This document shows positions 28,163 to 33,515 of a DNA stretch of 64,000 nt, piece after piece. Every line of letters starts with the position of its first letter. The first letter of the stretch is position 1. The position numbers and the translations under genes are program-made. The stretch is from Dictyostelium discoideum (taxonomy: Eukaryota), in assembly GCA_000004695.1 (NCBI GenBank), contig CM000154.2, positions 4,192,001-4,256,000 on the forward strand, in the 5' to 3' direction. The notes beneath the pieces are model-generated. The model made no database searches. It was not told where the DNA came from and was given only the letters and a program-made list of their open reading frames with translations.

Positions 28163-31100
28163 TTAGAGGTTTTCAGAGTTTTCAGAAGATTGCAAATCAC
28201 TGATATTATTATCACTATTGTTATTATTATTGTTATTATTATTATTATTATTATTATTATTATTATTATTATTATTATTATTATTATTATTATTATTATT
28301 ATTATTATTATTATTATTATTATTATTATTTTCATTATTATTTTCATTATTAATTTCAGTATTAATTTCAGTATTAATTTCAGTATTAATTTCAGTATTT
28401 TCTTGAGTATCTTCTAAAATGTTTTCATCATTATTTTTATTATTTTGTTGTTGATGTTGTTGTGTTTGATTTTCATCATCAGGGTCGTTCGAATCATCAT
28501 TTAATGATAATATTGATTTTGGATCAATATTTGAAATTGTTTTAAATAACATTTCACCAGAATTTTTAATATCATCAACCATTGATCCAATCATACTAAA
28601 AAAAGGTTTAATTGGTGGTGAATTAATTTCATTATTATTATTATTATCAAATGAGCCAATTGGTGTTGTTGATATTGGTTCAAATGATTCTTTATGAATG
28701 ATTTGAGGTTGACTTAATGATATTGGTGAAGATGGTGATGGTGTAATAACAGATGGTGAAGAAGAATAATTTGGTTGTTGTTGTTGTTGTTGTTGTTTAA
28801 ATGATAAATTTGGAGATTTACTTAATGGCGAAGAAGATGGAGCCGATGGAGCAGATCTAGTTGGTTGTTGAATTCCAGATGGGAAAGTTTGAGCACTAAC
28901 ATATAAATTGGTAGAAACATTTGAAGTTGGAATTGTAACAGGTGGTGAAACACTAGCAGATTGTCTACCAACTCTAGAAGGTACTTGTGGTGGTGGTAAT
29001 TGTTGGGACATTGGTCTTTGTTGTTGTTGCTGTTGTTGTTGTTGTTGATATTGTTGTTGTAAAATTTGTTGTTGTTGTAGATATTGTTGTTGTAAAATTT
29101 GTTGTTGTAATTGTTGTTGTTGTAAAATTTTTTGTTGTTTTTTAAATTCTTGCTCTTGAATGTATTGATTGATTTCAGATTTTGAAAATACTTGAATATC
29201 ACCAGTTAGATAACAACTGAATTCATCCTCTAATGAGAGTGAAATTTTAAAATGATAAGCTTTATCACGACAAGCATCTTTTAAGGGTAAAACGCCTTTA
29301 CCAATTAGTGATAAATCCATTAACTCCTTTGAAACCAATGCCACTTGAATGAATTGAGTTTTCAAGTATTCTTTATCATCAATGAATGATTTCAATTCAA
29401 TTGATTCATTTAACCAAGATGGTTGACTTGATGATTTACAAACTGATGTTTTCAAAGCTGAATTGGATTGATCATCAGAGATGATATGATAAGCGTCCAT
29501 CTCTAAGTAGGCATCTAGTTTACTTCCAAATGGTTGTACCAACTCTAATGGTGATTCACATTTCAAATGACGTATAATGATAAATGTTGGTATATCCAAT
29601 GTTGATAACCAAGTATATGGTGATAAAATTGGTAAACTAAATGAACATGAAATCGGTTGAAATAAACATGCCTCTGACAATGGTGATCTTGGTGGTGATG
29701 TACTAATTCCACCACTAAATACCACTCCACCATATGAACCATTACCAATTGTATTTGGTATAACTGTACTTGCTAAACGATTGTCTAAATTTTCAACTCC
29801 TTCTTTTTCTCCTTTTTCATTTTCATTTTCTAGTGATGTTGTTGTTGTTGTTGTTGCTGTGGTGGTTGTGGTTGGTGATGATTGTAATTCTAATGGACTT
29901 TCAAAAATTGTATCAGGATCTAATAATGATTTCCAATAAACTACACCTCTACCAGCTTCAGTAGTTGATAGAGAACTTTCTTTTGTTAATGGACGCCAAA
30001 TACTACTAGTATCTCTATTAAAAGTTAAAGTATTAATATCATAATCACCACTCCAAAATACATATCTACTACTACCATTAATATATTGTTTATTCTTTAT
30101 ATAAGTGATTAAAGATGATTCTTGTTCAGCTGCTAATTCTGGATTTGCACTTTGACTAACATTATTATTACAAAAGTTTATAAAACATAAACTTGTCTCT
30201 CTTAATTGTAAACTAATAGTAGTACCAAATTGAACATCCTTATATTTATCTTTAAATAAAATTTCTGTTGATTTTTGACTTAATGTTGATTCAATAATTT
30301 TATTACTCATTTCTTTTAATTTTTTTGATCCAAAAAAGAAATTTACAACACTACTACTACTACTATTACTACTATTACTATTATTACTGCCGCTGCTGTA
30401 ATTATTATTATTATTATTATGATGATGATGATGATGATTATTATGATGTTCTTTTAATTCAGATTTTGTTGGTGGTAATTGTGATTCTTTTTCTCTTGGT
30501 GGTAATGGTGGTGGAGCAGCACTTTGTAATGGTGGTGAACCACCAATATTTGGTGAATTTGAATTACTATTATTTGTTGATGATGAATTTGAATTGGATG
30601 TTGAATTTGATGATGAAAATTGTGATTGTTGTGATTGTTGTGATTGTTGTTGTTTTTTACCATATGGTAATCTTTTTTGTAAATAACTAATTGAAATATT
30701 ATTTGCACTATTTACTAATGATTTCTTTAATAATACAATTGAAGCAGTATTATCGGAAACTGCTGTTGCAATAGTACAATATTGTGGACCTAAATATTTT
30801 CTAATTAAATAGAACCAATATTGACGATAATTCATTAAGAAACCATCTGGTGATTTACGATCACTTGCAATTCTTTGAGCTGCAATCGAATAAAGATCTT
30901 TATCTTTTGGTAACCATTCTGAAAGGAATCCACCATTAATATTAATATTTTCCATATTCCATGATCCAATATATGCATTAAATATATCTAATAATCTATG
31001 TCTAATTGGTGGTGGTGATGATGGTATTAAATTTGGTGATGATGAATTTGAATTTGAATTTGAATTTGGTGGTGGTGATTGATTATTACTACTATCAATA

Positions 31101-33382: not shown

Positions 33383-33515
33383 CTTTTTGTTCAATTTTTA
33401 AAGTTGTTCTATCAATAAAAATTGATTTTGGATTCTTGTAAATAGTTAAATCTGGTTGAAGGACAACATATGAATCTAAAAATATTAGATTAATATTATA
33501 ATATAATTCATTCAT
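33383..33515 (-). CDS. Sac-domain gene exon 1 (MNELYYNINLIFLDSYVVLQPDLTIYKNPKSIFIDRTTLKIEQK + 1 nt).
   Basis: First ATG at 33515. Donor GTATAT at 33382. The phases are consistent (1 + 2), for a total of about 1709 aa. Confidence 0.5.

Follow-up and report, generated by a model that had tools for sequence, protein, structure and literature searches.

In Entamoeba histolytica, the Sac protein EHI_040380 has been described as carrying a DNase I/phosphatidylinositol (PI) 5-phosphatase-like domain without the critical residues (2019 review, PMC6563779). For SHIP2, the C2 domain was reported to be in contact with the phosphatase domain as well as with the membrane (PMC5550278). A synaptojanin-like enzyme is already known from Dictyostelium, namely Dd5P3, described as an inositol trisphosphate (IP3) 5-phosphatase (PMC2887444). 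In this study, we analyzed a gene of Dictyostelium discoideum encoding a Sac-domain protein with a 5-phosphatase-like region. The gene lies on the minus strand of a window of 64,000 nucleotides (nt) (assembly GCA_000004695.1, contig CM000154.2, positions 4,192,001-4,256,000), to which all positions below refer. It comprises three exons at 28163-33515, and the revised protein has 1717 amino acids (aa).

The product is read here as a soluble protein of ~1717 aa in which a SAC1-like Sac phosphatase is followed by a PH-like domain, a dead 5-phosphatase fold, a C2 domain and a low-complexity tail; we assign this reading a probability of roughly 75%. A preliminary description, made from the sequence alone, had proposed a Sac phosphatase with hidden 5′ exons, a possible hSac2-type domain and a possibly inactive 5-phosphatase module. 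Its splice yields a protein of 1709 aa; the 1717 numbering is the same with eight residues added beyond residue 44. No experimental paper on the D. discoideum gene was found in the literature collection searched.

Sac and 5-phosphatase-like domains

The N-terminal part of the protein matched Pfam Syja_N (PF02383) over the whole profile (positions 1-305 of 305; E = 1.8e-75, 254.5 bits with a cut-off of 27). Yeast Sac1 (4TU3) aligned from residue 49 to 502 (E = 2.5e-79) with the RTNCxDCLDRTNVVQS block intact, and the catalytic CX5R(T) motif CIDCLDRT aligned with CMDCLDRT of the yeast protein. On these motifs the Sac phosphatase is apparently active. A search with the Sac domain yielded 5111 proteins at E ≤ 1e-40. 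Among the best 120 of these 5111, identity was 40-46% over 99% of the domain (E from ~1e-110 to 1e-124), the named proteins bore SAC1/SACM1L or generic labels, and an hSac2 or 5-phosphatase Pfam domain was absent from all. By this similarity ranking, the domain appears closest to SAC1. Outside the Sac core, a Kyte-Doolittle scan of the whole protein (19-aa window) revealed no transmembrane-like segment; the sole window above 1.6 was a Sac core strand at aa 61-79, and none occurred in the C-terminal 1200 aa.

Homology of the downstream region to 5-phosphatases is visible only via the family profile. When the phosphatase-like and C2 pieces were searched as single sequences against the PDB with phmmer, only chance matches resulted. 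A profile built from 11 family members only matched the SHIP2 phosphatase-C2 structure (5OKO/5OKM) with E = 1.4e-20 over chain residues 5-460, through the C2 domain, and SHIP1 (6DLG) with E = 3.5e-20. These were followed by the SHIP2 catalytic domain alone (E = 4.7e-11), SPsynaptojanin (8.4e-10), OCRL (6e-8), INPP5B (2e-6) and INPP5E (5e-6). In an alignment of 14 family members (A1), five sequences matched Exo_endo_phos2 (PF22669; best E = 2.9e-7). Foldseek searches with the AlphaFold model placed the phosphatase-C2 structures of SHIP2 and SHIP1 first (1.3e-13 to ~1e-8), then other 5-phosphatases. The module thus has the EEP (5-phosphatase) fold.

The strings quoted in the preliminary description (CIDCLDRTN, IGSWNMEN, DLYSIAAQ, VFWSGDYDIN and NRSLYAVLC...) are all present in the sequence, and its three 5-phosphatase look-alikes align with true motifs of active enzymes. 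Spurious similarity, which it had allowed for and which the lack of any IPPc-type match would have favored, is refuted by the family profile, Pfam and Foldseek matches, including the five Exo_endo_phos2 hits. The Pfam scan that it had suggested for the 1709-aa protein returned Syja_N and, for the query alone, neither IPPc nor hSac2.

Comparison of the 14 aligned members with three active enzymes revealed a consistent loss of catalytic residues, which bears out the suggestion of an inactive module. In all 14, Arg, Asn or Ala stands in place of the Mg-binding Glu; the Lys of GNKG, the Arg of GDLNYR and the Arg of WCDR are absent throughout; and the Asp-His pair of SDH is intact in none. A helical segment of ~70 residues between GDLNYR and WCDR, including PTY(K/R) of active enzymes, is deleted. 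In D. discoideum, the corresponding positions read AAQRIA (Glu to Arg), FINFCNNN, FWSGDYDIN, GRGVVYW and ACLFQP (SDH to CLF), and the query contains neither the WxGDxN(F/Y)R and P(A/S)W(C/T)DR(I/V)L signatures nor the metal-binding Glu and the Asp-His pair. Judged by these residues, the 5-phosphatase-like module is catalytically dead in all 14 members aligned, and an active 5-phosphatase was rejected.

The dead module is nevertheless well conserved. Identity to D. purpureum is 83% in the Sac domain, 81% in the PH-like core, 80% and 79% in the two halves of the pseudophosphatase and 75% in the C2 domain, versus 17-30% in the low-complexity linkers and tail (tail 30%). This pattern points to strong purifying selection on the dead domain, about as strict as on the Sac domain. 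Such conservation might suggest that the domain has kept an enzymatic function, or that it acts as a headgroup 'reader' using the old pocket, within a dual phosphatase or substrate-channelling device like synaptojanin. Two observations would fit this idea: in the WN motif, the Asn that binds metal in active enzymes is the only invariant catalytic residue (14 of 14), and the Asp of GDxN is retained in dictyostelids. No member retains the metal-binding Glu, the Lys of GNKG, either Arg or a complete Asp-His pair, the ~70-residue segment is deleted, and on these grounds we regard the idea as very improbable; conservation of the strands alone is accounted for by upkeep of the fold.

The structured blocks of the pseudophosphatase are separated by two low-complexity inserts (Table 1). 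The inserts occupy positions at which active enzymes have short loops, and their length and sequence differ in every ortholog.

PH-like domain, C2 domain and tail

Between the Sac and phosphatase-like domains lies a PH-like domain whose first strand (EYNVLIITDSF) is split from the core (SLYAVLCINPSQ...QELYKHSF) by a 70-aa insert of Ser/Asn/Gly-rich low complexity. Pfam PH_29 matched the query with 25.8 bits, under the 27-bit cut-off, and matched eight of the 14 A1 sequences. In the AlphaFold model the core has a predicted local distance difference test (pLDDT) score above 90, and the best Foldseek matches of the modelled domain were the PH domains of ASK1 and Avo1, ISP3 and PTB domains.

This is the stretch that had been taken for a possible hSac2-type domain, which raises the alternative that the protein is an amoebozoan counterpart of Sac2/INPP5F, that is, a non-membrane Sac 4-phosphatase with an hSac2-type PH-like dimerization domain. 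In favor of this, the protein is soluble and its Sac domain is immediately followed by a PH-like domain; in addition, the review of Entamoeba proteins speculates that non-membrane Sac proteins act like Sac2 (PMC6563779). The hSac2 domain, too, adopts a PH-like fold (PMC4395482), so the earlier guess named the right position and class of fold. The results do not, however, support placing the stretch in the hSac2 family: PF12456 (hSac2) matched neither the query (E ≤ 1) nor any of the 14 A1 sequences (E ≤ 0.1), no Sac2 chain in the PDB was matched by the family profile at E ≤ 1, and none of the 50 listed Foldseek matches of the modelled PH domain was an hSac2 entry. Together with the SAC1 ranking of the Sac domain and with a phosphatase-C2 module that is not part of Sac2, these results make a Sac2 counterpart improbable. 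From the model, the stretch is best described as a generic PH-like domain.

The C2 domain, overlooked in the preliminary description, directly follows the pseudophosphatase on its C-terminal side, as in SHIP1/2 and unlike in synaptojanins, where a different domain takes this place. Pfam C2_SHIP1-2_2nd matched the query with 24.4 bits (cut-off 27.5; E = 3.4e-5) and four of the 14 A1 sequences at E ≤ 0.1; Pfam C2 was matched by six of the 14.

The tail contains three motifs common to dictyostelid orthologs. PPPQVPSR, of the PxxPxR type, is kept in four of these orthologs. The other two have the consensus KSPxLSF and ...P(T/S)K..F...VD(D/N)IK..GE.L; all three are candidate docking sites in a tail that is otherwise unconserved. 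At the C-terminus (28204-28410), an (AAT)n array with a period of 3 and 49.7 copies encodes a run of ~40 Asn; ahead of this run, ~6 copies of a 12-nt repeat code for TEIN repeats.

In the reading we favor, a SAC1-like phosphatase with a dead PH-pseudophosphatase-C2 unit, the Sac domain would be the only catalytic centre. Its substrate would most likely be PI 4-phosphate (PI4P), PI 3-phosphate (PI3P) or PI 3,5-bisphosphate (PI(3,5)P2), as for other CX5R Sac domains. The PH-pseudophosphatase-C2 unit could serve as a non-catalytic membrane-targeting or allosteric module, a role suggested by the precedent of the SHIP2 C2 domain, and the tail with its PxxPxR-type motif would recruit partners.

Several points weigh against this interpretation. 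The query alone has no Pfam 5-phosphatase match at E ≤ 1, its C2 and PH matches lie below the Pfam cut-offs, and these assignments draw on family profiles and models. The AlphaFold model of residues 610-1385 (1709 numbering) has a mean pLDDT of 60.8, because ~310 residues are disordered; its structured blocks reach 80-94, and in places the C-terminal half of the pseudophosphatase falls to 50-70. The proximity to SAC1 is a similarity ranking and not a phylogeny, and we only infer that the dead module takes part in targeting or regulation.

Gene model

The mechanical open reading frame (ORF) at 28163..32839 (minus strand) begins MMIQPLWKRCDRRFFWN, MMIQPLW, i.e., within the Sac domain, as had been noted before. 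The full-length Syja_N match and the alignment with yeast Sac1 confirm that two upstream exons are real coding sequence. The N-terminus encoded by exon 1 agrees with that of orthologs (D. purpureum MSIQLYSKINLIYLD...), and exon 2 encodes the first strands of the Sac N-terminal subdomain, where the yeast Sac1 alignment starts. The features of the gene and protein are listed in Table 1.

Table 1. Features of the gene and its predicted protein. Positions are those of the 64,000-nt window; residues follow the 1717 numbering.
Feature	Position	Strand	Residues	Description
Exon 1	33383..33515	-		133 nt; ATG at 33515; codes MNELYYNINLIFLD...KIEQK plus one base; GT donor at 33382
Intron 1 (revised)	33296..33382	-		87 nt; GT...AG; AT-rich
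Exon 2 (revised 5′ end)	33081..33295	-		215 nt; codes (V)YENSIFTGPIRSCVKIFGCLGIINLL...SLTEEE; GT donor after 33081
Intron 2	32969..33080	-		112 nt; GT...AG; carries (ATT)22 microsatellite
Exon 3	28163..32968	-		4806 nt including stop codon 28163-28165; starts KKEEKNYLTLLNDL...
Sac phosphatase domain	31787..33260	-	57-510	spans intron 2
Catalytic CX5R(T) motif	32105-32128	-		CIDCLDRT
PH-like domain	31217..31714	-	535-700	
Insert in PH-like domain	31454-31663	-		70 aa; low complexity
Inositol 5-phosphatase-like (EEP-fold) domain	29621..31006	-	771-1232	
Structured block	30665-31006	-		
Low-complexity insert	30350-30664	-		105 aa; this and the next insert Ser/Asn/His/Pro- and Thr-rich
Structured block	29921-30349	-		
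Low-complexity insert	29675-29920	-		82 aa
Structured block	29621-29674	-		
Motif remnant IGSWNMEN	30947-30970	-		aligns with motif of active enzymes
Motif remnant SIAAQRIA	30866-30889	-		aligns with motif of active enzymes
Motif remnant FWSGDYDIN	30032-30058	-		aligns with motif of active enzymes
C2 domain	29180..29620	-	1233-1379	…FIDDKEYLKTQFIQVALV…GDIQVFSK
Tail	28166..29179	-	1380-1717	Gln/Pro/Ser/Asn-rich; poly-Asn end
Tail motif PPPQVPSR	28973-28996	-		common to dictyostelid orthologs
Tail motif KSPNLSF	28799-28819	-		common to dictyostelid orthologs
Tail motif PPIKPFF...DDIKNSGEMLFKTIS	28532-28618	-		common to dictyostelid orthologs

The exons given in the preliminary description (33383-33515 and 33081-33271) hold for exon 1 and for the 3′ end of exon 2; the 5′ end of exon 2 most probably lies 24 nt further upstream. 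With that earlier splice, D. purpureum shows 81% identity over the N-terminal 246 residues, across both junctions. The only gap is one of eight residues, precisely at the exon 1/2 junction (KIEQK--------GPIRS versus KIEQKLYENSIFSGPIRS). Three dictyostelid orthologs, including those of D. purpureum and P. violaceum, have the eight extra residues (LYENSIFS or similar); the junction reads LYENSIFQG in P. violaceum and SYENSTFSG in another dictyostelid. In D. discoideum, the 24 bases directly upstream of the earlier exon 2 code in frame for (V)YENSIFT, with an AG at 33297-33296. Since this stretch is in frame and conserved in orthologs, the AG at 33297-33296 is taken as the most probable acceptor. 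The downstream AG at 33273-33272 is also in phase, but its use would drop eight residues conserved in orthologs. By this comparison, exon 2 most probably starts at 33295 rather than 33271, and the protein has 1717 aa rather than the 1709 of the earlier splice. An exact look-up of the 1709-aa sequence in the protein collection found no identical match.

For exon 3, the AG before 32968 is the sole acceptor that is in phase and stop-free, and the exon 2/3 junction (...LTEEE|KKEEKNYL) runs on as in the ortholog (...LNEEEKKEEKNYL). Acceptors before 33001 (in-frame stop), 32961 and 32958 were rejected on account of stops or frameshifts. The microsatellite reported earlier in intron 2 was recovered as a perfect ATT/TAA array at 33011-33077 (minus strand; 22.3 copies, 100% matches) that fills more than half of the 112-nt intron. 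Its length is likely to vary from strain to strain.

The region is strongly AT-rich, with a G+C content of ~25-39% in coding parts and ~10-20% in the flanks, and the coding sequence is packed with Asn, Gln and Ser runs, as is usual in dictyostelid genomes. A short ORF (86 aa; 27556-27816, minus strand) that lies immediately 3′ of the gene contains repeated ...ATINLSK / VNLSK / GINLSK.

Family distribution and comparison with described systems

An exhaustive phmmer search with query aa 610-1385 (1709 numbering) found 20 proteins. Strong matches came from Tieghemostelium, Acytostelium, Clastostelium, Cavostelium, Protostelium, Thecamoeba, Vermistella and Pelomyxa, as well as from unnamed transcriptome/metagenome proteins, and every named source among them belongs to Amoebozoa. 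The D. purpureum and P. violaceum orthologs were obtained in a separate homolog search with the A1 alignment. Full-length relatives share the order Sac, PH-like, phosphatase-like, C2. This A1 search, word-prefiltered to the 8000 candidates sharing most words, returned only six proteins, and a search of the same kind with a trimmed C-terminal query returned none; it is suspected that low-complexity words filled the prefilter's candidate list. In one ortholog, P0002 (eukprot gene6116-7621_t, 1924 aa), the tail is followed by ~450 aa of FNIP repeats (PF05725), possibly from a merged gene model.

Public orthologs show Syja_N only in their precomputed Pfam annotation and carry the UniRef label 'phosphoinositide 5-phosphatase'; the sequence argues against this activity for the 5-phosphatase-like domain.

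Weak matches included seemingly active enzymes from Rhizamoeba, Palpitomonas and metagenomes, in which GTWNVGN, QEC, GNKG, HLAAH, GDLNYR, WCDRIL and SDH motifs are followed by a C2 domain. In P0013 (a Rhizamoeba saxonica transcript), P0014, P0017 (Palpitomonas bilix) and P0019, this phosphatase-C2 unit stands alone with all catalytic motifs intact, and by their motifs these proteins resemble an active version of the module whose counterpart here is dead. A PH-like domain precedes the phosphatase-C2 unit in P0013 and in the fragment P0014. The family could have originated by joining of a SAC1-type domain to a PH-phosphatase-C2 unit of the kind that is apparently still active as a stand-alone protein in Rhizamoeba, with 5-phosphatase activity lost before the sampled Amoebozoa diverged.

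The stand-alone proteins also bear on a different origin, in which the gene would be a degenerate true synaptojanin/INP5x ortholog: an ancestral Sac plus 5-phosphatase enzyme whose 5-phosphatase half decayed, with no independent fusion. The order of the two domains is that of synaptojanins, the profile E-value for SPsynaptojanin comes near that for the SHIP2 catalytic domain alone, and the tail has a conserved PxxPxR-type motif. Against this, a PH-like domain lies between the Sac and phosphatase domains, and the PH-phosphatase-C2 arrangement occurs without Sac, seemingly active, in P0013 and P0014. Furthermore, a C2 domain aligning with that of SHIP2 follows the phosphatase, the Sac ranking found no relative with a 5-phosphatase Pfam domain among the best 120 of 5111, and Pfam reported no other synaptojanin-type domain in the query or A1. 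Dictyostelium also has Dd5P3 as a synaptojanin-like enzyme of its own (PMC2887444). A decayed synaptojanin is therefore unlikely in our estimation. Identity of the present protein with Dd5P3 itself was rejected by inference, as Dd5P3 is an IP3 5-phosphatase and the signature motifs of such enzymes are missing here.

A more far-reaching version of the SAC1-plus-dead-unit reading can be offered tentatively. It holds that a 'half-dead synaptojanin' was built independently in Amoebozoa, in which an active SAC1-type 4-phosphatase, freed from the endoplasmic reticulum (ER), is steered or allosterically gated by a fossil SHIP-like PH-phosphatase-C2 unit. Such a unit, having given up lipid hydrolysis, might still dock on membranes rich in PI 4,5-bisphosphate (PI(4,5)P2), PI 3,4,5-trisphosphate (PIP3) or phosphatidylserine (PS), e.g., macropinocytic or phagocytic cups. 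If true, this would be a pseudoenzyme of the phosphoinositide pathway through which 4-phosphate removal is coupled to the sensing of a 5-phosphatase's substrate or product.

The protein offers a well-conserved pseudoenzyme module of phosphoinositide metabolism. Its host serves as a model for the study of chemotaxis, macropinocytosis and phagocytosis, and knock-outs and domain swaps are easy in it. The protein is also a natural experiment on the non-catalytic role of the phosphatase-C2 unit in SHIP-type enzymes. The family arrangement, conserved across Amoebozoa and barely annotated, is relevant to researchers of phosphoinositide signalling and of pseudoenzymes. In practical terms, the mechanical ORF misses the beginning of the Sac domain, and the earlier splice most probably omits eight conserved residues.

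Among described proteins, SAC1/SACM1L are the nearest Sac class, with the CX5R(T) motif intact. C-terminal transmembrane helices hold SAC1 in the ER, whereas the present protein has no such helices; in their place are ~1200 aa of PH, pseudophosphatase, C2 and tail.

The SHIP1/SHIP2 core (5OKM, 6DLG; PMC5550278) shares a 5-phosphatase fold followed by C2 and gave the best profile and Foldseek matches. It differs in that no SH2 match was found here, a Sac domain occupies the N-terminus, and the phosphatase is dead and ~70 residues short. The phosphatase domain alone is not clearly nearer to SHIP than to other 5-phosphatases; the label 'SHIP-like' is mainly due to the attached C2 domain, and the phosphatase fold by itself does not split SHIP from synaptojanin. 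Among the structural matches, Cimex nitrophorin (PDB 1NTF) is an unrelated insect haem protein, and its match is a structural analogy only.

Synaptojanin and yeast Inp51-53 combine a Sac domain and a 5-phosphatase fold in one chain, in the same order and with a proline-containing tail. In the present protein, by contrast, the 5-phosphatase is dead, SAC1 is the class with which the Sac domain ranks, and the phosphatase-like domain has a PH-like domain on one side and a C2 domain on the other. Of a Sac domain paired with a competent 5-phosphatase, the order is thus found here and the catalytic residues are lost. Yeast Inp51 is a member of that family with one dead half, its Sac domain, and the present protein is its mirror image. 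The earlier description as synaptojanin-like therefore stands for the layout and gives way in the parentage of the parts: the resemblance is one of layout only, with a SAC1-like Sac domain joined to a SHIP-like PH-pseudophosphatase-C2 unit.

The closest described counterpart is E. histolytica EHI_040380, which is likewise amoebozoan, lacks transmembrane helices, and has a Sac domain with an EEP-superfamily domain without the residues critical for 5-phosphatases. The likeness is by description only; EHI_040380 probably belongs to the same family, because a member from an archamoebid (Pelomyxa) was found here. The review saw its domain at the superfamily level only and reported no PH-like domain, C2 domain, SHIP-like arrangement or family-wide conservation (PMC6563779). 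With the combination of Sac and a dead 5-phosphatase already noted in Entamoeba, the D. discoideum protein is not a new kind of system.

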